From assembly GCA_002269645.1 (NCBI GenBank), contig NIVC01003208.1:47215-111214 (forward strand): a DNA stretch of 64,000 nt, in the 5' to 3' direction. Within the stretch, counting starts at the first letter, position 1. Each line of letters begins with the position of its first letter. A model generated the notes under the pieces. That model was not told the origin of the DNA, made no database searches, and saw only the letters and a list, made by a program, of their open reading frames with translations. The DNA is from Macrostomum lignano (Eukaryota). The position numbers and the translations under genes were made by a program. Below are positions 601 through 64,000 of this stretch, piece by piece.

Positions 601-677
601 CCTGAGACACCTGTGACCGGATCTAGGGATCCGGCATTTAAGTCAGATTAACACGGCGCTGAGATATTGAGACTCAC

Positions 678-2454
678 CTGCCACAGGATCTTTTTCTTGC
701 GGGACCAGGGCTTCTTGCCCCAGAAGGTGCAGCCGCTGGGACTGAGGTAGTGCAGGTCGGTGATCTCCTTCCTGCACAGCCAGCAGAACTCGGTCCCGCA
801 CAGTTTGCACTTCATGTGGTTGCAACTGCCGTCGTTCTCCTTGGAGATGTAGGTGGCGCAGCGGGGGCACTGCTTCACCTCGGCGGGCGGCTCCGAGCTA
901 CTTGGCGCCAGCAGCACCTCCGGGTTGTCGCGGGCAGCAGCGTACAGCTCAGCCTTCTGCCGCTCGATGCGGGCCTGCTCGCAGGTGCTGGTGGGGTGCC
1001 ACTCGCTCTTGCAGTGATAGCAGAAGCTTGTGCCGCACACCTCGCACTCCAGGCGGGGGCAGCTGGCGCAGTCGCTGGCGATGACCGCGTATCTGGGAGG
1101 CGATTCGGCATGACCGCTGATGACGACTGAAGCTTATTATGACCGACTTTACTATGACCCCACCAGTCTGAATTTAGATTAGCACTATGACTCAATCTAT
1201 TGGCTTCATGACCTCAATCTATTGGCTTCATGACCTCAATCTATTGGCTCTATGACCTCAATCTATTGGCTCTATGACCTCAATCTATTGGCTCTATGAC
1301 CTCAATCTATTGGCTCTATTACTGAATCTATTGGCTCTATTACTCAATCTATTGGCTCTATTACTTAATCTATTGGTTCTATTACTGAATCTATTGGTTC
1401 TATTACTGAATCTATTGGTTCTATTACTGAATCTATTGGCTCTATTACTCAATCTATTGGCTTTATGACCTCAATCTATTGGTTCTATTACTGAATCTAT
1501 TGGTTCTATTACTGAATCTATTGGCTCTATTACTCAATCTATTGGCTTTATGACCTCAATCTATTGGTTCTATTACTTAATCTATTGGTTCTATTACTGA
1601 ATCTATTGGTTCTATTACTCAATCTATTGGCCTATTACTCAATCTATTGGCTTTATGACCTCAATCTATTGGTTCTATTACTCAATCTATTGGCTCTATG
1701 ACCTTAATCGGTATGCAAGTATGCAAAAATCTGGCGGGACAGCACAGCATCACCGAGCCGCTCACTTGCAGTCGGGCGCGGGGCACCAGCGGCAGTCGGG
1801 GTCGGCGGCCAGCACCCTGCGCAGGGTGAACAGCTCGTATTTGACTCGCAGCTCCTCGCTGACGATGGCGTTCACGTCTTCCGGATGGAGGCGGGCGCTG
1901 CAGCTCAGACAGGCTGCTGGGAGGCCCTCCAAGATGGCCAGTCGCAGCGCCGTGGCCAGGCATGGCCGGCAGGCGAAGTGGCCGCAGTCGGTGATCATGT
2001 CCGGGAACTGTCCCACCGGCAGTCGTTCGGCGCACACCGGACACTCAGCCAGACCGTCCGCGTCCGCCGCGGCCGCAGCGGGTGTCACAGTGACGGCCAC
2101 CGTCGACGAGGCGGAAGTTCCGGCCGCGCCGCCAGCGGCGCTGGAGTCGCCGGGCTGCTGAGAGGAGCGCCCTACTGGCTGTCGCACCGAGGAGGCGGCC
2201 GAGGAGCACTTCGGCTTGCGGCCGCTGCTCCCGCTGCTGCTGCTGCCGCCGCCACTAAAGAAGTTGCCAACCGCGTAGAGCACCGAGTTGGGCCTCCGGC
2301 GCTGCTTCAAGGAGCCGCCGCTGGGGCCGCCGACAGTCTCCGCCGGGGCAGCAGGGGATTTGGTTCTGGACAGCATGGACTCTGCTGTGAAAGATGCTGG
2401 AATAAGCGGCACATGAGAGTCAAGGCACTGCCTAACAAAGCTCGGACGCACCAT
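678..2454 (-). CDS. RNF19: RBR (RING-IBR-RING) E3 ubiquitin ligase, RNF19A/B (Dorfin)-like; 5' exons only, gene continues left of the window
   Basis: Exons 2454 (or ATG 2376)..1766 and 1092..678 with GT-AG junctions (DCK|YAVI in frame). RING1 [42 protein letters not shown]2 [21 protein letters not shown], followed by [25 protein letters not shown], which I recognise as the RNF19 signature. Confidence 0.9.
1187..1700. repeat. 21/22-bp minisatellite (CTCAATCTATTGGCTCTATGAC/TA) in an RNF19-like intron
   Basis: Tandem copies visible inside intron 1093-1765. Confidence 0.95.
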
Positions 2455-3021
2455 TGCGTTGAGAATTAAGCACTAATTATTGATATTGAGCCCTGAGTAG
2501 TGGGAACTGAACTTGGAGCATTTAGCAGAATGAGCATCGAGTCTGATTCTGATTAAACTCGCCAGTCTCGCTGCTATCGGCGCACTATGTATGCATTAGT
2601 ATGCATTCAGGGCGATAAATTTTGTCAATCACAAAGAACCGAAATCTATTATAACAAATGATAGCTAATTTTATAAAGCAGGTGGCAGCTAACAAAATTG
2701 AAGCGTCTCAAACACGCAGCGTAGACAGCTGGGGTGGGCAGTCAGTTAACTCTCAAACGAGGCCAACTGGTGTGATGAAGAGCAAAGCAGCTGAGCCCGC
2801 CTCGCTTCTGTGCACTCAAACACAGCACGCAAAGTGAACAGTGCTCAGGGGCAGAGCGCCTCAGACAATGAACAGCAGCAGCCAGTGCAGGTACGGAGTG
2901 AAGTGCAGGCCCAATGCATTAAATTAAACAGCATACAAAAACTGCATAACGGGTTTAAGCCACAAGAACGTAACTTCAGTCTCAGACGCCTCTCAACCTC
3001 GTCGGGGCTCGAGTAAAGATC

Positions 3022-3699: not shown

Positions 3700-6600
3700 G
3701 CATGTGTAAGCTGCCCATTGTGAATGTAGTAAATAAGGAAGTTGACAAACTGATCAAATTTTCTGAGCACTGAATATAATTTCTGACCTTGATATAATCT
3801 AATTAAACAGGATGCAATGAGACAAAGAAAAAGCTAAAGATTATCTGATAATCTAATCTAAATCTAACTCCTGGAAGACAAGACATTATTTACAAAATCT
3901 ATTGTTTTGCTTCTCATATTCAATGCTAAAAGGACAATGCATGAAGTCTGATATTTTAGACAATAGACAAAATTTATTGGTTGGATAAAGGTTGGATCAA
4001 AAAGACTGTCTTCAGATTTATTATAAATAGACCTACCTACTAACAGACCATTTTAGTCTCATATGGACTATAATATAACTAAGTAGATTTAACAACATCA
4101 TAATAAAATATTAGAGCAGCTGGTCTAACAGGTAGAAAATGGTTATTTGTAGACTCATAACACAGTCTCGTGCAATATCTATAGTCATCAATAGTCTATG
4201 GTTTGAGTAGACCAACACATGATGCCATAGACTAGTGAACATTAATGAAAACTGTCTATGGGCCAAATCAATTTATTTTTCAAGAAGGCAGCAATTAAAC
4301 TTGCATACTCCCAAAAATTGGCAAAATAGATAAAATCAAGTATATCAATCATTTAATTATTTATATTGGAAGACAAGACTGGCAAAGAACTCAACAAGTG
4401 CTTATAAGCAAAGTATGATCCCAATGTGCCATCAACTGAAAGTTCTAAACTTCTTAACTACCAAGAATAGGATAAGTTATGACCTATACTTAGGCTAAAG
4501 CCTATATCTAGCTAAGACAAAATGACTCAATATGAGTTCACATCCTTAGTTGTCATAGTATGAAATTATTATGACTGTCATTAGTGACTAGTATGTATTA
4601 AGCTCTTGACTTGCTTATATTCCACTATCAATATCTAGAAGTAGCATCAAGACAAGCCACCCATAGAATGCTACTGCTATATAACAATATGCTAGTGCTC
4701 TGACCACATATAGTAATTGCTGTCATTTGCAACTAAGCAGCTTAACAATCCTGCTTATAGTCTAGACTTTGACCTTAGTAGTAGTATAATAATTAAAAAA
4801 TAATAAAAATGAGATAAATACTAAAATACTTACAAGTGGTACAAGATGCAAAACAAAGACCTAATTTTCAACATAAGCTACTGTTGTGCCTAGGTGCACT
4901 TGTACCAATGAGCAATCTCTGGCTCTTGGTCAGGTGGGCCAGGCATTGCACTCTAAACCCTCTACTGCATTCATATAACTCAACCAATTTCATTATGTCT
5001 AGCTATAGTATATTTTTTATTAAGCCCTGATTGGCTAGATTGCCTATCCTACATCCCCAATTTACACAAATTATGATTTGCTATTGATATGCATATGCAT
5101 GCAATTATGCTAGCCAATCTGTGGTTAGAAAAAGCTTTTTATGGTTCTAATCCTTAATCTTAAAGGTTTGGGGTGTGAGTTGAATGAAAAAATAAGTGAA
5201 TTTAGGCCTACTTACTATATTTAATTTAGACATGTCAGACTACTTGATAGTAGTCCTTAAATTTTTATCAATAAACAGATAAACTTAAAGTAAATTTAAG
5301 TAAAGCAAGGAATTTAGCTTTAATCAATTATCATATAGTCCATTTTAATTTTTACCATACTATGTAATTACAGACTAGCTGTCATGTTAATGAAATGCTA
5401 TGTATAAAGATATATAAGCAATTATTCTATTAGTAATAAGGTCACAGTATATAGCTTCCTAAAACATAAAGCTTTTACAAGACTCTAGCTTGAATGTTTA
5501 CCCTCAAAAATAAAGGTAAATAAAATACTAACTAATATATTTTTCATATGACAATTTTTGATTTTGTTTGCTTATATACTTGATTTATTTAATTAGTTGG
5601 TTTTGCCTATCTATATATTTTTCTAAGTTTTTTATGCAGCTTACAATTAGAATTTCTTATACAATGGTATTAGCTATACTAGAAATGTATATACTTTAGC
5701 CAAGGTCTATTTTTTACTTGCAAACCCTACCTATGTTTCCTTTTAGAAAGTTACTGAGTTCATGGGCAGATAAAAAAGCATTGGCCAGCTAATGCACCCA
5801 TGGTAAAATATTAATAATATTAATACTTAAAGCCTATTTATCTACTAAGCATATTTTAATTGTGGTTGTCAATGTACCTTATTGGATCAAGTGAGCATAA
5901 TAAGTAGTTTACTTATTTTACTATTCCATTTAACCAAAAGTGCTGACCCAACAAGAATCAGTTTGACTCAGATAAAATCTAAGTAGATATCAAGTATTAT
6001 ATTTCATTCATATTTCAAAGCAGTCTAGACTGATAAAATTGATAAGGTGTTCTTTTTAACCATTAAGGACAGTTAAAAAATAGAATTTTAAAAAGGAATC
6101 TATTTTGCTTATGCACTTACTGTTTTGCATTTCCTACACAAAAGAAGAGGCTATTTTACATATACACTTACTTTTTTGCATTTTCTAGTTCTATACTTAT
6201 GAACCCTCTACTAATGCTCAAATATTTTAAAGAATTTCTAGTATATTTATAAAAGCATTTTTGGTATTTTTTATTCACTTTTTTATTTTTTATCAGTTTG
6301 TAGCACTGTTGGATAGACAATTAAAGCTACTTAATAAAATTTATTATACAGAGAGATTATACAAAATAGATTATCAAGAGTCTGATTTGTTACGTTTATA
6401 GACTTTAAAAAATCAGCTAGTGCCATAGCTCTAGGTCTTTAGATTAGATTTAATTATTTGCTACATAAGAATTTTTAGCTTGTGCTAGGGGTGTTCCCAT
6501 ACAATACACAATACTACCGCTGTAACCAAAGTTGTCGTAGGGCTTACTTCTGTCCTCCAACTATCCCACAGTTAAGCCACCAAAGTTGTGACAGGCCTTT

Positions 6601-9600
6601 CAGCTTTCTCTAGAAATTATCCTACTAATTGCCACCAACTGTGACAGGTGTATTTCTTCTTACTAAAATTTCTATTACTGACACTAAATTCTGCCTTAAT
6701 AATTCTAACTGTTTTCTTAGAATATTTTTCTGGGTATCATTCTCGTAGTATTTGGTCTGGTAGCGTTCTTAGTATATGGTCTGGTAGCATTCTTAGTATA
6801 TGGTCTGGTAGCGTTCTTAGTATATGGCCTGAGCGGTCTTACTAGTATATGTACTTTCTCTCTCCAGTCTGGGCATTACCGAGATTAGAGGGTCACAGCG
6901 ATCACTCTTAATACTGCTTTTGCATGAACTCCCGATTTTTCTCTCTCTATTCTTTAGTACACTTTCTTTGAAACACTCTTAGAATCTCTTACTGGTACAA
7001 TGAATAATGCTTTGAAGATCTGAGAACATGTATTATTGAACTAGCTATAACGATTTAATTTGCAAGAGCAAGTTGACTTCTTCTTCCCTAAACTTTGCTC
7101 CTATTTATACTAATTGTGACGAGTATATTTAAACAAAAGGCTATTATTCCAGAACATTTAGAAAAGTAAAACAACATAAAAAATTTTACACGTACATTTG
7201 AAATAAAGCCTTTCTAGGAAACCCTACCATAAGCAAGTGCTTTTCATAAAAAAATATTTGCAACCTAAAAACACATTTGGATATAATTTTTATCACTATA
7301 TATGATCATGCTCCAAATCATTATGCTTTGATTCATAGAGACAAGATTGATAAGCAACCACTAATGCAAGCAGAAAAATACCAAATTGTCCCAACTAATG
7401 AATACTAACATAGGTAGAAATATTTGCAGAATCATCAAATATATTCTACAAAATAACAGGCCTAGTAGTATATATCCAGTGCTTCCTAGTAAGACTTTAT
7501 TTGAACATATGTTGAAAGTCATTCCTTGCTAGGCTGCTTCTACTTTGCAGTTAAGAAATACCAGGTACAACATTTAGACACTATTAGAACCTGTCTTCAA
7601 TATTTAGAAAAGCAGGTTTGCAAGCTTAAAGGCTTCATTGAAAATTTCTAGCTAAGCAAGAGAGCTTATAAATCTTATTTGAAATATTATTGTATTGTAG
7701 ATATTCAAGGCTTATGTTGAAAACCACACCTTGCCCATCTTTTGCTCTTTAGTCAAACAAGATGAAATTTAGATGCTAATAGAAGTTTCCTTAACATATG
7801 GAAACAAAAGTTTGCAAAGTTTAAAATGAACCTTTTCTTAATACAAGTTTTTACCATGCATTTCATATTATATTATATTAAATTTCATATAAAAGTATAT
7901 TCTTTTTGTAAACATTTATAGTAATGTTTTATTTTTTCTCCATTTTATCTATAAATAAAGTTTTAATAAGAAAAATTTATCATCACTATAAAATTTTTTG
8001 TCACTTTAAATACATATTGATAATTGACTTATGTTTTTTTCTATGAAATTTATTCCAAAGAACTTTATTTGAAATAAATTTTAATTTTAAAATAGGTCTA
8101 TAAATAGCAATAAAGTCTTAAAAAAACTGCCAAGTTTCTTTTAAGGGCCTAACTTGTCTTTAATATTTATCAATTTTCAATGATTTCATAGACAAGAATA
8201 TAAATATATAAGGGTCTTATTAAGTGGGCAGTTGTGATGCCTAAAGTAAAAAAGACATAGACCCTATTTGATTTCATCTTATATAGATGATTTCTGACAA
8301 AGTTCAAGGCTTAATTTTTTTAAACAACTCATTGAGATGCTGATTACTTATATGCTTATACCCAGTCAACCTAGCTAATTTGGCTAGGTAGCAAGAGGTC
8401 TAGCCAAGTTAAGTTGCAAAATGCTGACCCAAAAAAATTATATGAAAAAGAGGAAAAAAGCAAGAAAAGAAAGAAAAACAAAGGTAGAGAAAGAGAAAAA
8501 AGGGAAAAAGGCAAAAACAGAGACTATATAAGTCAAAGTATTACTCTGAATCATTCATGCCCAACACCCGTCCAACCTGTCTGAACTAGACAGGTGAAAT
8601 GGCTGCTGGCCAAGGTAAGTCACAAAATCGAAAACGCAAAAACCAAAAAATTGGGAGAAGAAAGAAAGGAGAGGAAGAGAAAGGGAAAAGAAATGAGGGA
8701 GAAGAGAGAGGGGGGAAGAGGAGAAAGAAAGAAAAAGAAAAGAAAAGAGAAAAAGGCAAGAAAAGTCATATACAAAGTGAAAATTAAGTTGCAATCGGGA
8801 GGAACTAAGTCGCAATCGAGAGGAACTAAGTCGCAATCAGGAAGAACTAAGTCGCAATCAAGAGGAACTAAGTCGCAATCGAAAGGAACTAAGTCGCAAT
8901 CGAGAGGAACTAAGTTGCAATCGAGAGGAACTAAGTTTTTTTAAGCATTTTTTTCTGTAGGTTTAATTTAAGTTTGTTTAAAATGAAAATATTCGTAATA
9001 TTTGAAAGAATTTTTGTACAAAAAACCTTTCTTAGAAAACTCTACTCCTGAAAACCGAATGACCTTTTTTTAGGAGGAATTTTTGGTGTACATTTTAGGG
9101 AATTTTTTTGTTTTTGGTGTACACTGGCGTACATTTAGCTGAGATAGGATTCTTGTTCCGGCATACACTACTACACAATCCAAACCGTGGTAACCAATAA
9201 GCCTAACTACCTGGTTGGCAGTTAGAAAGTGATAGCCATCTCTTGTCTACACTTTTAAAAAACATGCCACCACCTTTTTACTGGAGAGACTGAGTGGCCA
9301 AAAAAGTTTTAAAATGATATATTTTGCTTTGAACAAACTTAATTGTTTTATTTTTAATATTTTAATAGCTTATTGCTATTGCTATTTGCTAAACAAAAAG
9401 CAAACTAAAACTAAAGGCATAGGCCTAGGCCTGTCTACACATGGCCATTAGCTGGCATAAGGAGAAAAAGCTCAACAAAAGCATGTTTTGACTTTGACTC
9501 GCTTCATACCATAGACATAGTGGCATAGTCCATAACCAGATTAGGTCTAGTTTTTGAAACTTTATTAACTCCTATATAGCTAGTGTAATATGCAACCACT

Positions 9601-9650
9601 ATTTCTCTTTGAAGCTTGTATATGAAAGTTAGTCAGGGGTTGTCATGTAA
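3700..9650. other. AT-rich, strongly CpG-depleted block of unknown origin (decayed element or pseudogene?)
   Basis: By eye only about 2 CpG in 3700-6400 and none in ~7200-8560. No long ORF. Contains a 24-bp repeat (~6753-6845), a purine run (~8450-8780) and a 21-bp repeat (~8790-8935). Confidence 0.6.
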
Positions 9651-9970
9651 TAAATATACTTAATCCGTTAATCGTAGGCCAACAATGACGCGACGGACGT
9701 CGAGTCGGTCGAAATCGGAACCTTCGAGTTCGAGGAAATTAAAATTCAACAGTTTCTGAGTTGTGATTCAAATGCGCGCCACAACGGAATGTATTTAAAA
9801 GAGCTGCCAATCAAACTTTTAGTATAAAAATTATATTTAAAGAAAAGCTAATTTGATTTTTATTTATAGGTAAAAATAACTTTAGGCAAAACAATAAAAC
9901 TGTTCTGTTTAATCGATTTCAGAGGCTGATGCATACAAATGCTAACCAGGGACTACTACAACGTGACTTA

Positions 9971-21746: not shown

Positions 21747-22232
21747 TCATAGCTCCTCGCCGAGGTCGCAGATGCTCTCTGCAATCAGCCGGTAGGACAC
21801 CCGGCCGTCACCATCGGCGGGAAATGTGTTCAACAAGGCGTCGAGCTCCTCGTCCGTCAGCGGCTCGCCTTTGGTGGTGAGCAGGTGGCGCAAATCCTGC
21901 ATGTTGATGTAGCCATCGCCGTTGTGGTCCAGCACCTTGATGGCGTCCGCGAGCTCCCCCACGGAGCCCTGCTCCTTGGGGTAGCGCAGCATCACCTGGT
22001 AGAACTCGTCAAAGTCCATCGTGCCGTTGCCGTCCGTGTCCACCTCGGCGATGAGCTTCTGCAGCTCGGACTCGGTGGGCAGGCGGCCCAGCGCGCGCAT
22101 CACGGCGCCCAGCGTGTCGTTGTCGATGTTGCCGTCGCCGTACTTGTCGAACAGGGAGAACACGTCATTCCACCGCGTCAGCTCCTCCTCGCTCACCTCG
22201 GGCTCGTCGGCCGGGTTCGTGGCAGCTGCCAT
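21747..22232 (-). CDS. calmodulin-like / myosin-light-chain-like EF-hand protein, single exon (161 aa)
   Basis: EF loops DKYGDGNID, DTDGNGTMDFDEF and DHNGDGYIN, plus a degenerate fourth loop (ADGDGRVSY). Calmodulin-like spacing (LGAVMRALG..PTESEL, GEPLTDEE). Confidence 0.9.
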   Translation of the reverse strand: MAAATNPADEPEVSEEELTRWNDVFSLFDKYGDGNIDNDTLGAVMRALGRLPTESELQKLIAEVDTDGNGTMDFDEFYQVMLRYPKEQGSVGELADAIKVLDHNGDGYINMQDLRHLLTTKGEPLTDEELDALLNTFPADGDGRVSYRLIAESICDLGEEL

Positions 22233-23545
22233 GTGGGTTGAGACTCGCTGGGGAGAGTCTGCTTTCAGGAGACCGGCTGGTGCTCAGGACTGAGCGGTGA
22301 GAGCTGGGGAGTTGGGGAGCTCAGAGATGAGGCGGCAAGGCTACGCGGTCAGAAAATGGGATTGCCAAGAATCCACAAAACACGCTGCGGAGAACAAAAT
22401 AAAGAAGAGCGGGGGCCGGGAATGAGGGACCGGGGTGTCTGGGGAGGAAAACAATGCGCTTGGACTGGCAACAAAATTTGAGCGCTAAACTGCTCTGCCC
22501 CGTCTCCCCCCCCTCCATCGCTTCTTGTTGCCCCTGACAACTTGAGTAGCCTCGCGCATCCAACCCCAGCCCTCACAGCAGCAAGCCGCAGCAGCAGCAG
22601 GCGTGGCCGCGACCCCGCCAATGCCGAAGCAACTCTCAGACTGAGGTGCGGCGCGCAGGGCTGCATCAAATTGGCCATTCAAAGACTCAAGATGAGGGGG
22701 GGGGCAGAGAGCAGAGAAAATAGCAAGTTGGCAACAATATGCTCACTGCGCTCTGTCGGACACAAAAAGGCTTGCTCAAAGAGAGAGAGAGACGCTGTTT
22801 GAAGATTCAGTTTAAAGTAGAGACCCGCACAATGCCGAGACAGCCGCGTCTCTTCCTGTCCTCTCCCAGCGCAGACCGGCCTCTGCCTTGAATAGGCCAG
22901 CAGATGCCGCTCCGGCGTGTCTCACAGCGGACAAAGCCAGTCCCATCAACCCCCACCCTTCCCTGGGCTCTCTTGCAAGCTTTTGCCTGCAACCCCGTGT
23001 AGCAGCCAGTGGCTACTGATAGTAGGCACTTCAGTCAGTACCACTCGAAATGAAAATTAAACAAGCAGAAACCATGAAAAGCTTTGCGATGCATAAATCA
23101 GGGGATGCCTCATTAACAGGGTCCTGAGGGCTTAATGAGTCATGTGTCGGCATTATTATTATTTGATATCAAAATTAAAAAGCCACGAGCGGTCGGTATT
23201 AACAGCAATAATATATGTACTAATTACAAACGCTAAAAAAGCACTGTTACATGTCGAAATTGATTGTACCTGTAAAAAGTTGAAAAATTGCATTGCTAGG
23301 AAATAAAACGAGTTAATGCAAATTGGGACTGGCAGCAGAGCAAGGTTAGCGAAAAATCTATCCGTCTAAAAATCAATTTACAAACAAATAAAACCGGGCC
23401 TGTGCAGCCTCAGCTGGCTCATATTAGAGAAATATTATAAACTGCAGGGCATGTGTACACGGGCCGAACTTCAGGGAACAGAATAAACTCTATTGACCAG
23501 CAGCAGAGATTAAACGAGGCCGAATCAATCAATCTCAGCCTGCCG

Positions 23546-42985: not shown

Positions 42986-44282
42986 AGCAGCGATTGATTT
43001 GACTTGAAGCGGATGTTTGAGAAGCTGAGAACTCACTTGGCCCTTTATCTACTAACCCTCAGGTGCGCCCAAATCGAGTCGAAATATTTTGAGTCGAGTC
43101 GAGCCAGATTTTGCGAACGAACAGCTGAAGGATGAAACATCTTCAAAATATGCACTTTAGCTTTGCTGTCGTGCCGAATTCGATGTACTTTTATTTTTTC
43201 AGTTTTTTCTCTTAATAACAATCGCAGATTCTAAACTCTTAAGGCTTAAATCGATACGCTTATATGCTACTCTTTTCTAAGCAGTTGAAAATTTCGGTAA
43301 AAATGCTGTTAAAACTGTTGTAACTCTGTCGTTAGAGGAAATTTTGTCACACTAAATTAGTGTCTAATTAGTTAGACGATTAGGTTGAGGTTAGTTTTAG
43401 GGTTAGGCGTAGATTGCCTCTAGTTACAGGCCATAGTTATTAGCCTTTAGATTTAAGCGTCTTGATATAGTCTCTAGATATAGCTCGTTGCCTCTAGATA
43501 CAACCTCTATACATAGCCACTAGAGTTAGGCCTTTAGATCTATCTATCTGGCCTCTAGATATAGCCTAGATATCGGCTCTAGATATAGCCTTCAAATTTA
43601 GCCTCTAGTTATTATGGCCTCTAGTGGAGTGTTCAGTGCATTAGTATTGACGCAAATTAATGTCAACTAATATCTAAAAGTCTCTCATTAAAGTTGCCCT
43701 CTAAGATTTTCACCATGCCGCTCTTGTAATTGATTTTACAAGAAGTTCAACCGTTTCGAAATGGCGCGAGCAGGCCAGTCTTATCAAATAAAGTGAATCG
43801 CGCTGTCTGTCTCATTTTAACTCGTATGGCTCGTGCTTCGCCTTCTGTTCGCCCCAAGCGCAGTTGGCAGAGCCCTGCGGGACCAGGCTGATTGCTAATA
43901 TTGGCTTATCTGGGCCCACGTGGCTCTCCGAGTGCTCAGATTATTTTCACCTGCTCGATTCTCTTATCAACACGGACTGCTGGCGTGCAGCAGCAGCAGC
44001 TTTTGACTCTGCGCTTCGAACAGCGGCCCCTCCACCCCCGAGCCTCCCTGCTGATAAGCCAATCTGTAAACCCCGCCCTGCAGTCACGCTTTGCTCTGCT
44101 CACTCGAGCTCCACCCCGCTCTCCCTGATCTCCTACTTCTGCTGCTGTTTCTTAAAAACCGGAGACCCGCAAAAGGTGCGCAGTGTGCCGGGCAGCCCCT
44201 GCTAGCAACTGAGCTTAGAGTATCGCATTGTAACTCCAGTGACGGGCAGAGACCGAGAAAAAGCAGGCCTGCAAGAAAGCCA

Positions 44283-54037
<9,755 letters not shown>

Positions 54038-54550
54038 CTGCCAAAAACCATCATGACAGAAAGCCCAGAAGATTAATTAAACCGCACTAGCAAAGACCCA
54101 TACCTGTGATTGAGCGAATACTCCTGAGCATTGTACAGACAGGTGTCACCCATGTGCTATTTGAGTGCACTGGGTATATGAAGATCATTCATTGATTGGC
54201 GTTGCATTGCTACCCTTTAATACGAGCCTCGTTTATTTTTCCAATGACAGAGCGCTGAGGCGGTTCAAATATTGAAATTATTTTAATTTAAATTACACAT
54301 TTAAACAATATTAGCGGTGGAATTTTTGCGGTAATCACATATACCCCCATCATACTTTATATTTATGTATTTTATAAACAATTTACGGTTTCAGAGTTAA
54401 ATTTCTTTACTTACATGTATAGTAAAATTTGCTCACGTTGAATGCCTTCTGTTGCCATCGAAGTCTGCTACGAGTATTATGTGATGAATATACTACTGAG
54501 TAACTCAAAGTATTCAGTAGTATTGGTGCAAATCTTTTTTTATAGTGGAT

Positions 54551-55301
54551 GATGATGGGATATTTAATATTAGATCAATATCTGGATGATGGGATCTCTA
54601 ATTGTAGGTCAATGCCTGGGTGATGGGATCTCGAATTGTAGATCAATAGCTGGATGATGGGATCTCTAATTGTAGATCAATACCTGGATTATGGGATCTC
54701 CAATTGTAGGTCAATACCTGGATGATGGGATCTCTAATTGTAGATCAATACCTGGATGATGGGATCTCTAATTGTAGGTCAATGCCTGGGTGATGGGATC
54801 TCTAATTGTAGGTCAATACCTGGATGATGGGATCTCTAATTGTAGGTCAATGTCTGGGTGATGGGATCTCCAATTGTAGGTCAATGCCTGGGTGATGGGA
54901 TCTCTAACTGTAGATCAATACCTGGATGATGGGATCTCTAATTGTTGACTAATACCTGGATGATGGGATCTCTAATTGTAGGTCAATGTCTGGGTGATGG
55001 GATCTCTAATTTTAGGTCAATGCCTGGGTGATAGGATCTCTAATTGTAGATCAATACCTGGATGATGGGATCTCTAATTGTTGACTAATACCTGGATGAT
55101 GGGATCTCTAATTGTAGGTCAATGTCTGGGTGATGGGATCTCCAATTGTAGGTCAATATCTGGATGATGGGATCTCTAATTGTAAGTCAATGCCTGGATG
55201 ATTGGATCTCTAACTGTAGATCAATACCTGGATGATGGGATCTCTAATTGTTGACTAATACCTGGATGATGGGATCTCCAATTGTAGATCAATACCTGGA
55301 T
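54551..55301. repeat. 34-bp satellite (GATGATGGGATCTCTAATTGTAGRTCAATACCTG) abutting the Polinton-like left end
   Basis: About 22 copies; the last unit is cut at CTGGAT|AGTAGTAG. Confidence 0.93.
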
Positions 55302-55390
55302 AGTAGTAGGGCGAATTATGATACTGCCGCACTAGCACTGGCGAGATAGGCGGCAATGCAAATGTACAGGGAAAAATACACTGCGGAGAT

Positions 55391-55672
55391 ATGAGCCCTA
55401 TCTCTGTGCATTGGGGACGGCTAAGCACTGCAGAGATATGAGCTCTATCTCTGTGCATTGGGGACGGCTAAGCACTGCAGAGATATGAGCTCTATCTCTG
55501 TGCATTGGGGACGGCTAAGCACTGCAGAGATATGAGCTCTATCTCTGTGCATTGGGGACGGCTAAGCACTGCAGAGATATGAGCTCTATCTCTGTGCATT
55601 GGGGACGGCTAAGCACTGCAGAGATATGAGCTCTATCTCTGTGCATTGGGGACGGCTAAGCACTGCGGAGAT
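55391..55672. repeat. 47-bp self-complementary subterminal array (6 copies)
   Basis: ATGAGCTCTATCTCTGTGCATTGGGGACGGCTAAGCACTGCAGAGAT, bracketed by a 39-bp direct repeat starting at 55318 and 55684. Confidence 0.9.
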
Positions 55673-56014
55673 AGAGGCGATTCATGATACTGCCGCACTA
55701 GCACTGGCGAGATAGGCGGCAAAAAGGATATAGGAAAAATACACTGCGGAGAGGATCCTATCTCTGTGCATTGGGAACGGCTAAACATTGCAGAGATAAG
55801 AGGGGTGGCCAATCTCTGTGCTCTGTGTTAGGGTAAGGTTATAAAGTTTTACAACTGCACAGAGGACGGCTGGTGTTGCTTACCTGGATAAGGGGACGGG
55901 GGGATACACTAATTACAGCCGGTAGCCTCTATAACGGTAAAGTAATTATTACCTGAGCATGGCTGGATGTTCATATACGATATGATAAGGAGAGGGCATG
56001 CATGTACAAATTAC

Positions 56015-56074
56015 TATATAAGCAGCCACGCAAGTACAAATAAACAAATAGACAAAAACAAAATTGTATAAAAG
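56015..56074 (+). promoter_or_regulatory. two TATA-box-like motifs upstream of the first element ORF
   Basis: TATATAA at 56015-56021 and TATAAAAG at 56067-56074; ATG at 56125. Confidence 0.45.
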
Positions 56075-56124
56075 GATTTTTAAAAACCTTACTACTTCTA
56101 AAAAACAACTCTTTCTCTTTCAAA

Positions 56125-57382
56125 ATGAAAACTTTTAAAAGTTGTCATAGAGACCTCTATGAGGTCTGTATAAGCTGCGAAGTGTGCCTGCTTGGAGGCG
56201 TGTCCCAAGACACCACGAGAATGAGAACTGTCTGGTCTCATGCTGGTTGGCATGCGACCAGTGCGGCACCGTCGAAGCTCTGCAGGAGGGAAAAATTCCA
56301 GCATATCATCGAGGACACAGGATCGTCAGCGATGACAAGAAAAAGCAAGAAAGTAACCGCTGGAAAGTAATCCGCGCCATCAAAAGAGCAACGAGAGAGA
56401 AAAGAAGATCCAGCAGAAAAAGGGAGCCAGCAGGAGTCTGCTATCAGCTCACTTGAGTCAAGTAATTGACTCTACATTGAAGAGGATGAGGCCAAGCGGG
56501 TCTTCAGCAGCTGCAGAATTTGAAGTTGAGCTGTCTGCTGGAGTCGAGGCTGCTGGAGTCGAGGCTGCTGGAGTCGAGGCTGCTGGAGTCGAGGCTGCTG
56601 GAGTCGAGGCCGCTGGAGTCGAGGCTGCTGGAGTCGAGGCTGCTGGAGTCGAGGCTGCTGGAGTCGAGGCCGCTGGAGTCGAGGCTGCTGGAGTCGAGGC
56701 TGCTGGAGTCGAGGCTGCTGGAGTCGAGGCTGCTGCTGTCATAAACTTCATAGAGGAAGATGTCCTGGATCAGTTCCTCAGGGAATTCAACGCTGGTCAG
56801 CAGCAGCAGCAACCTGTCTCTTCGGTTCCGGTGATTGCTGGAAAACAACTTCATCTAATTGAAGACGACCACGAAATGGAAATCCTAGAAGAGGAGGGCA
56901 GCGACAATGAGTCGCATAATGCAATCGTGCCACCTGCAGCTCCAGCCGCCCCAGCTGCTCTGGCCGCCCCAGCTGCTCTGGCCGCCCCAGCTGCTCTGTC
57001 CGCCCCAGCTGCTCTGGCCGCCCCAGCTGCTCTGTCCGCCCCAGCTGCTCTGGCCGCCCCAGCTGCTCCAGCCGCCCCAGCTGCTCTGGCCGCCCCAGCT
57101 GCTCTGGCCGCCCCAGCTGCTCCAGCCGCCCCAGCTGCTCTGGCCGCCCCAGCTGCTCCAGCCGCCCCAGCTGCTCTGGCCGCCCCAGCTGCTCTGGCCG
57201 CCCCAGCTGCTCTGGCTGCCCCAGCTGCTCCAGCCGCCCCAGCTGCAGCCTCTACAATTCCAGCTTCTCAATCCGAAACTCCACCCGTGCCAGCTGGAGT
57301 TGCCTTCTTTCTGCCTCCTGTCGGCGGGGCTGGGTACGAGGTAACGATTTTCGAAAATCGTATTAGAATTGTGCCGCTGTGA
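56125..57382 (+). CDS. element-borne protein with a Cys-rich (CxxC..CxxC) N-terminus, basic segment, (AGVEA)n and acidic/(APAA)n low-complexity region; reconstructed across two -1 shifts
   Basis: ORFs 56125, 56184 and 56453 join if one base is restored at ~56185 (CC) and ~56402 (A-run). The 56453-57382 part is an uninterrupted 309-codon frame. Confidence 0.45.
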
Positions 57383-58267
57383 CTAAGCAATTTTTGTACT
57401 TTTTTGCTTTCTGTGTGGAGTGAGAAATCTACCCATTTATTGCAATTATTGCTAAAACTTTATTTCAACTAGCTTTTTAAAGTTGAAAGTAGGTACATTA
57501 ATTAATGATTTGATCATCTCATAACTCTGTATTCGCTTCTAGGAATCTTGCTTATAAGTTTTCAGTTTTCATTTCCAAATTAGTTTTAAAAAAAGCTCGT
57601 AGCTCGTAGTGGCAACCAATATTTTTTTGGTATCCGAGGTAAAAAAAATTATTTGAAAAGTAGGTGAAACATTATACAGTTGAATTTAACAAATTAAAAT
57701 CAACATAACATACTTTCAATAAATTGGTGATGGTTTCGTATGCTTGGTGCGATTGATTAGGTATAATTTTCTTTCTACTGCTTTGACGCGGTGTTTCCTC
57801 ATTCTTTAATTATTGAACTTTTCAGCTATATTTCTGCTTCTAAACTCTCGTCTGTATTTTTAATTCATTGTTCCATGCATTGTTTATTGACTATGATTGC
57901 ACCATGTGAATTCGATAATTTTTTAAAAAAATATATACATATAATGTCAGCATTTTTCCACTCGGTGATTGGTTTGTTAATTAACTATTGGCTTCATTTT
58001 GCATTTTTTACCGATTGAGTCTGCGTAGGAGGCAAATAGAAACGAACTTTTACGAATAGGGATCAATAGAATATGCATGCAGAGAGCTAGCTTAAGGGAG
58101 AACCAAAAAAATATAACCAGCATCTACTAGCTTGTAAGTGTGGATATTGTACCAGTATTGCAGCAATAAAGACTTACGAAAAAGATTTCCAATATTCACT
58201 CCCAGTTGCTTATGACACTCAGTTGCAGCCAGTAAACACTGTCAGCTTTTAACTGCTTGCCTTTTCT

Positions 58268-61200
58268 ATGGTTGAGCACTCCTGGATGGAGCAGGAGAAT
58301 GACCACTCATGGATGGAGAATGACCACTCATGGATGGAGAATGACCACTCATGGATGGAGAATGACCACTCATGGATGGAGAATGGCCACTCGTGGATGG
58401 AGGATGACCACTCGTGGATCGAGTATGACCACCCTTGGGTGGACCATGACGTCAGCAGCGAGTCAGCAGCCAGCAGCGAGTCGGCAGCCAGCAGCGAGTC
58501 GGCAGCCAGCAGCGAGTCGGCAGCCAGCAGCGAGTCAGCAGCCAGCAGCGAGTCAGCAGCCAGCAGCGAGTCAGCAGCCAGCAGCGAGTCAGCAGCCAGC
58601 AGCGAGTCAGCAGCCAGCAGCGAGTCAGCAGCCAGCAGCGAGTCAGCAGCCAACAGCGAGTCGGTGACTGATGCACACCAAGGTAAGTGCCTTTATTTAT
58701 CCTTTTCAACTTACTTAAAAATTTTCTTATCAATGCGATGTATATTATGCAGTCTAAAATTTTAGTCCAAAGAATGGGAGAAGGGGAGATAAAAGACTTT
58801 ATACCGGTAGGGTTGTACATGTATGCTTGGGTACAGACGTTTAGTTTAGTATCTTTGATATTTGAAACTATAGGCAGCAAAAAACAAAAATATTATCCTA
58901 AAACCACAAACCAGGTTCAACAGTCAGCTTCAGCAGAGTTGCCCAAGCCTATGATCAATCACTGGAAATACTGAGGCTCAGATCGAGTCACCCAGACACG
59001 CTTCCGTCAGAATTTTTTGTCCAAGCTGGAGACAAAATTATTGAGGCAGTTCAGCAAAGAATTTCAAGACATCATTACAAAGTTCAGCTAAAGGCGAATA
59101 TTCGAATGGTCCGAATAAGAGATGGGGAGATGCTTGCCGAAGAGGACAGATGGATAAGCTGTAAAATGCAGGCCCTAGACCTAGGTGGTGAAGCAGGCCG
59201 TTTAAACAACTGGTTGATTGAGCAGGAGCAGGAGTTGGAGAGGATCTGTAGTATGATTAATACGAACGGCAGTGGCTGGACAATTAAACAAATTAATTTT
59301 CTAGACATCAACCTTGCCAGGTACAATCCAATTCGATTTCGCCAGGGCAGAGCCGTTAGATTCAATCTTCCTGCCAGTTTGAAGAACAAAAAGGCTGTTA
59401 TCAATCCACCGAGCACAGGCAAAGACTGTTTCCTGTACGCCTGTCTCGCTGCACTGCACAGCGCCGATCCGAAAGTTCAGAAATCGCCCAACAGAATATC
59501 CTCTTACGATGAATGGTTGCGTGAGCTGGACTTTGCAGAAATCTCCATGCCAGTGAGTGTCGCTGATATCGATCGCGTCGAGTCTAACAATCCAGGAATT
59601 TGCATTTCTGCGTTCTCTTGGCAGCAGGGCAGTGTGACTCTTCTCCGTCGCCGCAAGCATGAGTCAGATGACCGAAGACACCTCATGCTTTTGCTAGTTA
59701 AAGACAGCTACGGATCGGAGCACTGGTGTGCAATTACTAATTTTGACAGGTTAATGAACAGTCGTAATGGTCCCGCCATGAGGAAGTGGTGCACGAAATG
59801 TTTAACATCATTTTATAGCAACGAGAGGCTTCAAGAGCACAGGAACGAATGCAGCATTACTGCAGAAAATCCTGTCAAAGAAACGCTTCCAGTTCCAGGA
59901 CAGAATGAAATAAAGTTCCGAAACTGTCAAAACACTGTCAGTCCACCATTCGTTGCCTATGCCGACCTGGAAGCCATTTTGCGAGCGAACACAGACCCTG
60001 CTAACCTGATCTCAAAGCATGAACCATGTGCAGCAGCTTTTCTTGCAGTGCCTCGTGAAGGCATGACAGGACCTCCGCTTAGGCCAGAAGGAGACATGTA
60101 CAAGGTCTTTTGCAATGCGGACCCTGATGAGTGTATCCTTGGTTTTCTCAAATCTCTTGAAAGCCTGGCTCAGGATATATTTCACTGGAACCAGAAGCAT
60201 AGCCACCAGCCGGCTGACCGATCATCCGCGACCGTCATGGATGATTTCAATTCTGCTGAGGTATGTCACTACTGCAAGAAGAACTTTAAAAGTTCTACAG
60301 ATAAACATTTTGACCACGATCATTTAAATGGACAGTACAAAGGTGCAGCATGTCAAGAATGCAACCTGCGAGCACAGCTCCGACGCCGGTTTCTGCCCCT
60401 GGTTTTTCACAACTTAGGCGGCTACGACCTTCATCTTCTACTTTCCACTGCGCTTGGGAGCATGAAAAATTGGAAACTTAGTGTTGTTCCGCAATCATCC
60501 GAGCGATACTTGTCACTAAGGGCGGAATTCCCTGTTGCAAGTTACGTAAAGAACGGAAAAGTTGTGCCAATCATGTTTACAATTCAGTTCATCGACTCGC
60601 TCTGCTTTTTGAAGGGAAGTTTGTCCAATTTGTTTGCTAATCTTCCCGAAGCTGAATGCAAGCTGACAATGCAAATGCTTGAGTCAAGACCACATCTTTC
60701 AAGAGAGCTACTTCGAAAAAAAGGGATTTTCCCATATGATTACCTCACAGGATTTGAGATTCTCGAGCAGTCGGTTTTGCCACCTAAAGATGCTTTTTTT
60801 AATCGACTTTCCGATAGGGGAATTTCCGACGACGACTACAATAGAGCAAGAGCGGCATGGGCGGCATTTCAATGCAAAAGTTTGAAGGATTATATGCTCG
60901 CCTATCTTGAAATGGATGTAAGGCAGCTGGCTGACATTTTCGAGACATTCCGACAGGCCAGTCTGAAAGAGGACGGATTGGATCCGGTACACTACTTTAC
61001 TACTCCTGGTTTGTCTTACGACTCAGCTCTAAAGTCGACTGGAGTGGTTCTAGAGCAGCTGACTGATGCTGACATGTATCATCTGTTTGAGAAGGGAATA
61101 CGAGGAGGCATGTCCTTCATTAATGTGCATTGCGTCAAAGGTAATAATCCTAGCTTGCCAGGTTATGATGATCAGCAAGAGAGTGTAAGCCTCATGCCGA

Positions 61201-62560
61201 TCGATATGAACAACTTGTATGGCTTTGCCCTGTCGCTTCCGCTTCCATGCAGGGAATTCAGGTGGGTACCGGAACAGGAAATCCAGTTCTGGGACTCCAA
61301 TCGGTTTCTGTCACTCAATCCAGAAGCCGAGATCGCCTACCTTGTTCAACTCGATCTAGAATACCCAGCTGAGATTCACGATTCGACTCAGGAGTTACCG
61401 TTTGCACCTGAAAAATCAAAACCACAGCCAGATCAATTCTCGCCGTACATGGCCGAACTATGGAAAGAGATTGCTGAACAGCGAACTGGCAATGCTGAAG
61501 CTAAGTTTCAAGCAACGGAGAAGCTTCTACTCACCTGTACCGACAAGGATTCTTACGTAGTTCACAGCACCGTTTTAAGATTTTACCTGCAACACGGAAT
61601 GCGGATCAAGTGCGTCAAAAAAATGATTTCGTTCAAGCAGGAAAATATTTTCGCGCCGTACATTGCCAGCAACAATGAAAAAAGAGCTTTGGCAACTTCC
61701 GAGTTTGCTAAGGATTTTTACAAATTGAAAAACAATTCTCTCTTTGGAAAAACTATGGAGAACGTTCGAAAAAGATGCGATGTTCGAATTTGCACTAACC
61801 AGACTCAAGCAGAAACTTGCGCCTCTCGACCAAACTGTGCCGCATTCTCGATTATCAATGAGTCGTTGAGCATTTTTCAGCTCAAAAAAGATAAAGTCAC
61901 GCTTGACAAGGCCATTTTCGTTGGCAGGCAGTTCTCGATCTCTCTAAGATGGCCATGTACAGCCTACTATATGACAGGCTCCGACCGCTGTTCTGTCATT
62001 CAGACGGTTCCAGAGACATGATGCTTTGCGGAGGTGATACTGACTCATTTTTTCTAGCTTTCAAGAATCATGATTTAACATCGGAGGTAATCCGAAGCTT
62101 AGAGAGGAAAAAATACTTGACACATCCAACTATTCTCGAGACCATCCGCATTTCTCTGAAGAGTTAAAAGGAAAGCTGGGCTGCGTTAAAGATGAATCTG
62201 CTGGTGGAATTTACCAGGAGTGGATTCTTTTGCGTCCAAAACTTTATTCGTTTCTCCCTGCCGAGAATTCGAGTGCAAAGATCAAGAAAACTGCCAAAGG
62301 CGTGAAGCAGTCAGTAGTAAGACAGCAAATTTCGCATGCGAACTATGTCGACGCGTTCGAGTCCAAGCAAGAGCAGATGGTTGCCATGACAGCGATTGTT
62401 TCCAAGAAACACGAAATCTTCACGTCGGTCATGGAGAAAGAAGCCTATCGGTGTGGGAGGATAAGCGAGTGTGGCTTAGCAGTAATCGAAGCCTGCCTAC
62501 GGACACTATGCGCTGACGCCCGCATCCCACGATCAGCTGAAGCGCATCCGACTGGTCTAG
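58268..62560 (+). CDS. protein-primed family B DNA polymerase (DNA_pol_B_2, Polinton type) with endonuclease VII insertion; probably spliced
   Basis: Motifs AYADLEA (ExoI), CHYC..DHDHLNGQYKGAACQECN (EndoVII), FHNLGGYDLH (ExoII), YLEMDV (ExoIII), IDMNNLYG (A), KLKNNSLFGK (B), GGDTDS (C), LRPKLY and TAKGV. Probable exon 58268-58682, intron 58683-58923. Four -1 shifts at ~61925, 62110, 62438 and 62498 restore FVGQAVLDLSK..LDTSNY..KRSLSVWEDKR..LPYGHY to TAG 62560. Confidence 0.9.
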
Positions 62561-63141
62561 TGCGGGTGTTTAACAGACTGTTTAGTACTTTTTCTTGCTT
62601 TTAGAGTTGTTAAATTGCCAAATTCTGTTTTAAATGTAGTGACTTGCATGTAGTAACTTTTACAAATTTGTATGCTTGGCTAATTGCGCTAGATTTAGCT
62701 TGTCAATTTGTTTTTGCGGCGTGAAATATTGATATCAATTTAAGTTTTACTTTTTATAAAGCTGTGGCAAGTGCGCTCATACAATATTAATTCATTTTTG
62801 TTTGCTTTGTGTACTACTTGTTTAAAATGTGTTTTTGGTTTTTATCTGACATAAATTGTTCCTGTAAATTCAATCAGCGTTTTAATCATATTTTCTCTAT
62901 CACTTTTCTATTTCTCTTCTCTCGGTGCACATCGTTTGTTATAACGATGGTAGTATTGTTTACTTTCGGATTTGATATGCGTTTTGCGATACTTTTGGTG
63001 ATGGGCTAAATACGTTTTTGAAGTGTTCCATAGCTGTCTGCCTGGGAAAATGAATGTAAAGAATACTAAGTTTATCCTTTTATTCACTTTTCACTAATCA
63101 TTGAAATATTTGCGGCAAATTGCTTGACTTGACTTTTATTT

Positions 63142-63713
63142 TTATTCAATGGAAAGAACTACATTGAGTAGACGCATGCTATCGGTATGCAACTGATTCA
63201 AGGACCGAGCTCCACTGAGAACAAAAGAGCCGCTGTGAAAAAGCAGACATTTACAAAAGTTTAAATTGAAAATTAAAGCAGAAAAGGATTCTGGTTCATA
63301 TTCGCGTTTGGGATAATTGATTTTAACATTAATAAGGAAAGTGCGGAATGAACTGGGAGCTGTCCATGAGCAGTAATAGTTTTAATTCGAACAAAATTTT
63401 TGTTTGATGAGGCAGCAGTTGACCGGCACTCTCCGATGCAGCATAGCCACGAAGCGACGGGCAGCCCTTTTGGCGTCTGCGTGGGTCTTGGCACCGCAGA
63501 TGCTCAGTTGCCCAGTAGGGTAGAGTAGGAGAGTCACTCTGGGACTTCGCATCCGCTTGATGAGCACCCGGGCCAGACGGGCCGGTAGATCACATGAGCC
63601 ATGCTGAGAGCCAGTTCCCGTAGAGGCAGCTGAGCGCCCCTGCCACCATCCAGTCTCAGATCTACTCCGCCAACCAGATTGGTCACTCTTAGGGCTGTAG
63701 CTGGTGGGCTCAT
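63142..63713 (-). CDS. divergent TATA-binding-protein-like protein (two TBP repeats, no N-terminal extension, intronless), split by three frameshifts
   Basis: Repeat 1: LRVTNLVGGVDL..HVIYRPVWPGVLIKRMRSPRVTLLLYPTGQLSICGAKTHADAKRAARRFVAML. Repeat 2: VRIKTITAHGQL..NAEYEPESFSALIFNLNFCKCLLFHSGSFVLSGARSLNQL..VLSIE*. Both match the TBP pattern NIV..YNP/YEPE.F..R.P....LIF.SGK....GAK. AATAAA overlaps the stop. Confidence 0.85.
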
Positions 63714-64000
63714 TTCGATCGTCAACTTCTTCACCAAATCTGCTTCTGCCAACTTTACTGCTCGTGTGCCACGGACACTGCTCGCTTCTTAAGTTGATGC
63801 AGACTTTGGCTTAAGCCAACTGTAGTGCAGGCAACGAATTTCTCACTGCACAGCCAGTATCTGAATCTTCAGTCGAGGGTGCTCCCAAATCTTCTAGTTA
63901 TAAACGCTGTCTTCCAAGCAGCTCAGTCAGAAAAGACTTCCTTTCCCCATTTGACCAGATCGACCACTGGCAATGCTCAGAATGTCTTCCGCCAGTTCCA

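Follow-up and report, generated by a model that had tools for sequence, protein, structure and literature searches.

Does the point at which a short satellite of the flatworm Macrostomum lignano breaks off mark one end of an integrated Polinton, and, if it does, what does this element carry that known Polintons do not? The question is raised by a stretch of 64,000 nucleotides (contig NIVC01003208.1, positions 47,215 to 111,214 of the forward strand; hereafter the window, in whose own numbering all positions are given). For this stretch, an original prediction made from the sequence alone had proposed the left terminus of a Polinton/adintovirus-like element at the edge of a 34-bp tandem array. 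The proposal stands: 55302–64000 is very probably the left part (8.7 kb) of a Polinton/Maverick of adintovirus type integrated in a short host satellite, as judged from a polymerase of this type by sequence and fold, host DNA left of the junction and the commonest published end motif. The window stops 8,699 bp into the element, whose identity as a Polinton, held with the same high confidence, is read from this left part alone. The predicted succession of array edge, end motif, subterminal arrays, open reading frame (ORF) and pPolB was located in full by repeat, motif and domain scans (Table 1). While this end structure is that of a textbook Polinton and ordinary in itself, a divergent TATA-binding protein (TBP) among the cargo and a pPolB that is probably spliced are what probably set the element apart from known Polintons.

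The polymerase and the probable left end of the element

Polintons/Mavericks were recognized by a pPolB with terminal-protein (TP) and vOTU domains, a short 5′ terminal repeat, terminal inverted repeats (TIRs) of 100–1,500 bp and target-site duplications (TSDs) of 5–8 bp (usually 6 bp). The first two are found at this locus. The pPolB is of the Polinton/adintovirus type, as had been predicted, and comprises a TP fold, an OTU protease, an exonuclease that contains an endonuclease VII insert, and polymerase motifs. The insert may link it to the Beta class of adintoviruses. The long frame contains Exo I–III and Pol A–B, Pol C lies in the next frame, and the C-terminal part is broken by three frameshifts. 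Pfam matches are to PF03175 (E 2e-12; above the cut-off, weak at 47 bits) and PF02945 (E 9e-6); the OTU-PolB of Beta adintoviruses is described as divergent from the PF03175 archetype (PMC8502044), and the low score would fit this class, here compared by its description only. Relatives of the polymerase number 19,262 at E ≤0.001 among 1.84 billion representatives (best identity 48%) and 2,720 representatives at E ≤1e-30. In a tree of 23 sequences, for which 22 of 163 relatives were picked among the best hits, it falls together with a named M. lignano pPolB and two other sequences (support 1.0), and its best viral fold match is a protein of Drosophila-associated adintovirus 2 (E 2.5e-19).

The structure predicted for 58917–59786 from a 70-sequence alignment has a predicted local distance difference test (pLDDT) score of 91.9. 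Residues 12–139 of this model resemble little-finger domains of the Y family (best Z 8.3, root-mean-square deviation (rmsd) 3.1, 108 aligned) and residues 150–278 resemble OTU domains (Z 7.1, rmsd 3.8, 106 aligned), both Z scores being middling. The same assignments, a little-finger-like TP and a vOTU, have been made for Polinton pPolBs (PMC11161782). The putative priming Ser occurs in 69 of the 70 aligned sequences, the protease Cys in all 70 and the His in 69; the catalytic residues of the vOTU are intact.

By fold and alignment, the first ATG (59106) is not the start of pPolB: the TP domain begins at about 58917, 63 codons ahead, and 46 of 163 polymerase relatives align upstream of this ATG, only three of them left of 58916. 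A predicted intron ends at the same place. Its donor at 58683 is the only plus-strand AG/GTRAG site in the element and its acceptor at 58914 the first in-phase one with an open polymerase frame behind it, although 58923 could also serve, and GC content is 32% within the intron versus 60% and 45% on either side. Splice sites and frames suggest that pPolB is probably spliced, with the acidic repeat stretch 58268–58682 placed in front. This would differ from vertebrate Mavericks, whose intact ORFs are described as intronless (PMC8097293), and an annotation based on ORFs would clip the TP domain of such polymerases. A Cys-containing frame (58091–58252) lies upstream of the predicted upstream exon.

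At the other end of this region, the host array stops at 55301 and is directly followed by AGTAGTAG, the commonest Maverick end motif; AGTAGTAGGGCG, which begins at 55302, has its sole match in the window there when up to one mismatch is allowed. In vertebrate Mavericks, (AGT)2 is reported as the commonest end motif and TSDs are 6 bp long (PMC8097293). The array, found nowhere else in the window, consists of units that are 29–34/34 identical to the array majority (the last unit 33/34, the next 34 nt 12/34). Any of the three published Maverick end motifs occurs within 3 nt of only one of the 96 array edges in the window, namely the edge at 55301. The remaining AGTAGTAG/CTACTACT sites (4777 and 39359) were discarded as Polinton ends, there being no viral gene nearby.

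The element resembles described Polintons/Mavericks in its (AGT)2 end, a pPolB with TP and vOTU near one end, an accessory CxxC gene upstream of the polymerase and two converging modules (PMC8097293; PMC8502044; PMC10748475). It differs from them in the TBP-like gene adjoining the polymerase. Moreover, the first module of vertebrate Mavericks is described with the ATPase directly after the polymerase (PMC8097293), which is not so here. Integrase-linked pPolB loci of M. lignano are already known in tabulated form, as Supplementary Table 3 of PMC10748475 gives 175 integrase-linked pPolB1 loci for one assembly and 78 for another, both named as M. lignano in PMC11589783. These loci are alike in host genus, long pPolB and an integrase usually several kb downstream, and the rows listed give coordinates without gene content (PMC10748475). 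In 21 of the 30 rows listed the integrase is downstream of the polymerase (20 more than 1.5 kb away, 16 at 4.7–10.4 kb), and 21 of the 30 passed the TIR filter (PMC10748475). Pfam found no retroviral-like integrase in the 14 frames scanned between 56044 and 63810, an absence explained by the tabulated integrases lying mostly several kb past the polymerase, that is, beyond the window.

A TBP-like gene convergent on the polymerase

Opposite the polymerase, 626 bp from its stop and 8.4 kb from the element end, lies a single two-repeat TBP-like gene. Convergent TBP-like genes in the plural had been predicted, which was rejected: laid along a single intact relative, the five frame pieces follow one another over its whole length and cover 185 of the 190 residues of the M. 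lignano protein P0001, and the M. lignano protein BOX15_Mlig021525g17 matches the gene almost residue for residue. The four frameshifts of this gene (near 63570, 63420, 63395 and 63300) and the three of the polymerase C-terminus all go in one direction and are accompanied by very few substitutions, which suggests read-consensus errors rather than decay. Given this, the element copy may be young.

The family found has six members: three are M. lignano records, of which two are partial, and the other three are intact proteins 72–75% identical. A profile search that scored 8,000 candidates returned only these six and two distant TBPs at 26–27% identity. A prokaryotic origin was considered and set aside, as a GTDB pattern search, which finds close relatives only, gave four matches and none was confirmed. 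The annotation of M. lignano is RNA-based and uses a shared prefix for 95%-identical clusters (PMC5730564), so that the name ending 'g17' suggests a transcribed multi-copy gene.

Two PF00352 repeats are recognized in P0001, P0003, P0005 and P0006, and the model of the protein (pLDDT 80; Foldseek E 1e-12, template modelling score 0.58–0.72 to the solved TBPs listed) shows the two-repeat saddle fold of TBP. Identity is 20–28% to solved TBPs among the matches listed and at most 20% to the viral fold matches listed, and the protein is no closer to viral TBPs. In canonical TBP, four Phe intercalate and two Asn contact TATA DNA, and the acidic C-terminal stirrup contacts TFIIB. Compared with the E. 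cuniculi and Pyrococcus TBPs, the first repeat has Pro (beside a Trp) and Tyr at the intercalating positions, while the second keeps both Phe and the acidic stirrup; the Asn positions hold Asn and, in the second repeat, Thr. The canonical set of four Phe and two Asn is therefore incomplete. The substituted DNA-contact residues are identical in all four full-length members, which also retain both Glu of the stirrup. From these residues, the protein probably still contacts TFIIB and DNA and may prefer a non-canonical box.

As for its place, an inverted copy of the left end is absent between 56130 and 64000, which puts the gene inside the element unless this copy of the element is truncated, and its location is within the 13–25 kb given as the length of Polintons (PMC10748475). 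Short coding-like frames on both strands (63790–64000) leave the window upstream of the TBP-like gene and are probably the next gene of the element. Downstream of it, a possible short broken ORF (62800–63045, minus strand) lies behind a pyrimidine-rich acceptor-like site; for the one frame of this ORF that was scanned, Pfam gave no match.

Precedents for a TBP are found outside animal Polintons. For non-animal MELD viruses, figure legends name TBP homologues (PMC8502044; bioRxiv 10.1101/697771); by legend description only, these viruses are alike in being midsize linear DNA elements with a TBP homologue (PMC8502044). The ORF24 TBP mimic of KSHV, the herpesvirus of Kaposi's sarcoma, acts on variant TATT late promoters (PMC6590836), and it and the TBP-like proteins of giant viruses share a TBP fold with altered DNA-contact residues. 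However, KSHV and giant viruses are far larger, and the gene of the window encodes a compact two-repeat TBP of 190 amino acids. A literature search that left aside most subscription journals and Repbase found no report of a TBP in an animal Polinton or of Macrostomum Polintons; mentions of TBP or TATA were zero in three surveys, two of them 2026 preprints, by term counts only. The supplement and figures of PMC8502044, outside this search, may list a flatworm element or a TBP-bearing genome.

Competing readings and a possible expression programme

Several observations weigh against a cleanly integrated Polinton with a TBP of its own. In the 8.7 kb of element within the window, no TIR, right TSD copy, integrase, ATPase, protease or capsid gene is seen (the scans of the window found no double jelly-roll major capsid, penton, packaging ATPase or maturation protease gene). 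In addition, the 'nearby' integrases of the tabulated M. lignano loci are those within 20 kb and may include retrotransposon ones, and these loci are of class pPolB1, to which the polymerase of the window may not belong (PMC10748475). ORF1, the Cys-containing frame near the left end, has no homologue, with repeat noise only in Pfam and a best Atlas score of 0.76, which is at chance level. The left edge of the 34-bp array is nearly as abrupt as the right (29/34, then 11/34), a second AGTAGT is present at 54516, and chance alone would yield about 0.03 motif hits at the exact edge and 0.23 within a distance of 3 nt. Binding to TATA is not certain, since one Phe position holds Pro and the Asn of the second repeat is Thr, and linkage of TBP and pPolB is seen at this one locus only.

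How much do these points change? The sharp right array edge was dropped as evidence of insertion, the left being almost equally abrupt. Likewise, the satellite ends with CTGGAT at 55296–55301, as predicted, but the accompanying claim that it stops mid-unit weighs little because where a unit is taken to begin is a matter of choice and the left edge is almost as abrupt. The end motif, weak alone by chance expectation, carries conviction only in combination with the pPolB, which lies 3.6 kb further in. Were the AGTAGT at 54516 the true left end, the 34-bp array would belong to the terminal repeat of the element or to an older invaded element, and CTGGAT would be no TSD. This site is the only other plus-strand AGTAGT in 52000–59105 and lies 35 bp before an array that is confined to one place in the window. 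However, it forms an arm of a perfect 10-bp hairpin (54490–54523, arms with ACTACT and AGTAGT, 28 bp ahead of the satellite) in AT-rich host-like DNA of 29–36% GC, whereas the motif at 55302 is longer, (AGT)2AG, and a duplicated block of 50% GC starts immediately at 55310; we regard this end as highly improbable. The hairpin could be either a small element unrelated to this one or a competing end. Somewhat less remote, though still improbable, is a Polinton-derived sequence that was not cleanly integrated and has no right TIR or TSD to match: it could be a remnant left by truncation or rearrangement, a MELD-type virus lacking an integrase, or a join made at the satellite during assembly. The polymerase and TBP-like genes together have at least seven frameshifts, 96% of vertebrate Maverick loci are reported as degraded (PMC8097293), integrase-less MELD viruses exist in animals (PMC8502044), M. 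lignano assemblies are repeat-rich and difficult (PMC5730564), and 9 of the 30 tabulated M. lignano rows listed failed the TIR filter (PMC10748475, Supplementary Table 3). Yet the integrase-less MELD viruses described from Hydra and spider have polymerases without OTU (PMC8502044), while that of the window keeps its OTU intact; the near absence of substitutions relative to P0001 speaks against old decay, and the end motif is placed exactly at the junction.

A further alternative concerns the TBP-like gene only, which could be a host paralogue that evolves fast or mobile cargo of separate origin beside a truncated Polinton, or could lie inside the element without a role. The three named relatives are all annotated as M. 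lignano proteins, the Atlas clusters closest to it are ordinary TBP/TBPL families of eukaryotes and archaea, fold searches favor cellular TBPs (E ~1e-12 versus a viral best of 2e-9), and a link to a polymerase was seen at this locus only. In contrast, the gene is intronless where the host genes of the window are intron-rich, it converges on the polymerase over a 626-bp AT-rich spacer as in the two-module Mavericks (PMC8097293), it is apparently multi-copy, and three further full-length relatives, at about 70% identity, keep the same substitutions, which implies selection. On balance we consider this alternative unlikely, though more plausible than the two concerning the element as a whole.

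In adenovirus and phi29, a primed polymerase slides back on a short terminal repeat. By analogy, the short AGT repeat of the Polinton proposed here would let the primed polymerase slide back and copy the very end. Synthesis on linear ends would be primed by the conserved Ser of the TP domain, and the vOTU would then cut the terminal protein off (both after PMC11161782). As in the family generally, a retroviral-like integrase encoded further right would have inserted the element, duplicating the 6-bp CTGGAT. The right junction is accordingly predicted to read ACTACT, CTGGAT and the 34-bp array, i.e., CTGGATGATGGG with a TSD and GATGGG without one. An early left module would consist of a TATA-led zinc/acidic regulator followed by the probably spliced pPolB, and would be opposed by a convergent minus-strand module of which the divergent TBP would be the last gene. 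Tentatively, and at somewhat less than an even chance, this TBP may act as an element-specific promoter-recognition factor for virion genes, in analogy to herpesviral TBP mimics; alternatively, it might compete with host TBP or serve at the element ends. The fuller proposal, that a Macrostomum Polinton lineage encodes its own conserved and transcribed TBP whose altered DNA-binding face redirects host RNA polymerase II to late promoters specific to the element, is more doubtful still.

The gene matters because transcription control in animal Polintons is little known. For a virus-type transcription factor in these elements, the report that we found is of VLTF3, from coral polintoviruses (PMC11131425). 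If true, a dedicated TBP maintained by selection would speak for virus-like expression in stages over plain transposition and, with a spliced pPolB, for an early/late programme like that of adenoviruses, run by an integrated element in a model animal ready for transgenic work. Such a programme would make it directly testable whether animal Polintons go through a viral cycle. M. lignano permits knock-down and transcript mapping.

Subterminal region, ORF1 and host surroundings

Table 1. Features of the left part of the element and its insertion site, in window positions.
Feature	Position	Strand	Basis
Host 34-bp tandem array, 22.1 copies, presumed insertion target	54551–55301	.	Repeat finder
Predicted left copy of 6-bp TSD, CTGGAT	55296–55301	+	6-bp TSDs of Mavericks (PMC8097293)
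Putative left terminus, (AGT)2AG end motif	55302–55309	+	Motif search
Subterminal region, probably left TIR	55310–55860 (right border approximate)	.	Repeat analyses
TATA-like box, second at 56067	56015–56021	+	Upstream of ORF1
ORF1, three frame pieces: CxxC pairs, basic patch, acidic AGVEA/APAAL repeat region	56125–57382	+	ORF list, motifs
Coding stretch of acidic tandem repeats, predicted as an upstream exon of pPolB	58268–58682	+	Inferred from frames
Predicted GT-AG intron, 232 nt, 32% GC, phase-compatible	58683–58914	+	Splice-site and GC scan
pPolB	58915–62516	+	Pfam, motifs, fold model, alignments
Region of convergence, AT-rich (34% GC), with poly(A)-like signals and a possible short broken ORF on the minus strand	62517–63141	.	
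Single two-repeat TBP-like gene, 190 codons, intronless, five frame pieces	63142–63713	-	Pfam, alignment to P0001

The subterminal arrays that had been predicted consist of a 47-bp array (55379–55673, 6.3 copies, 98%) framed by a 134-bp duplication (55310–55442/55676–55802, 86%). WGATAR enrichment in this region (11 sites) was given no weight, as it comes mostly from one repeated unit. A search of 54000–64000 against Rfam gave no match. The expected TATA-led, Cys-rich and acidic ORF follows: TATA-like boxes at 56015 and 56067 precede its ATG at 56125, the CxxC pairs lie at 56167, 56176 and 56253, and an acidic, repeat-rich 341-codon frame reaches 57382; the three frame pieces appear to form one gene. 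In its position upstream of the polymerase and in its make-up, ORF1 is similar to the 'Oncoid' genes of adintoviruses (PMC8502044) or to an E1A-like regulator. Oncoid genes, however, have LxCxE or CR1 beside paired CxxC, whereas ORF1 has CxxC pairs without either motif; neither occurs in any plus frame of 55900–59100, where frameshifts could hide one. Between ORF1 and the polymerase, an imperfect 31-bp inverted repeat (74%; 57601–57631/58102–58132) surrounds an AT-rich 470-bp stretch and may be due to chance or to an old small insertion.

Left of the junction lies ordinary intron-rich host DNA. The Pfam hits of its 111 non-repetitive frames of at least 90 amino acids are to RING/IBR, EF-hand, Sushi and M1 aminopeptidase only. 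Polinton genes or a second element in this part were therefore rejected, as the domains are those of the host and the 163 polymerase relatives match nowhere else in the window. The host M1 aminopeptidase gene (44070–54037, plus strand) has introns packed with many different short tandem arrays; what we take, by a C-terminal motif, to be its last exon ends near 54037, and the 34-bp array begins about 0.5 kb further on. Other host features include RING/IBR exons (RBR ubiquitin ligase-like; 651–2472, minus strand), a calmodulin-like EF-hand ORF (21750–22283, minus strand) and an AT-rich island at 4000–9900 (28–35% GC, against about 50% in the rest of the window) without long frames.

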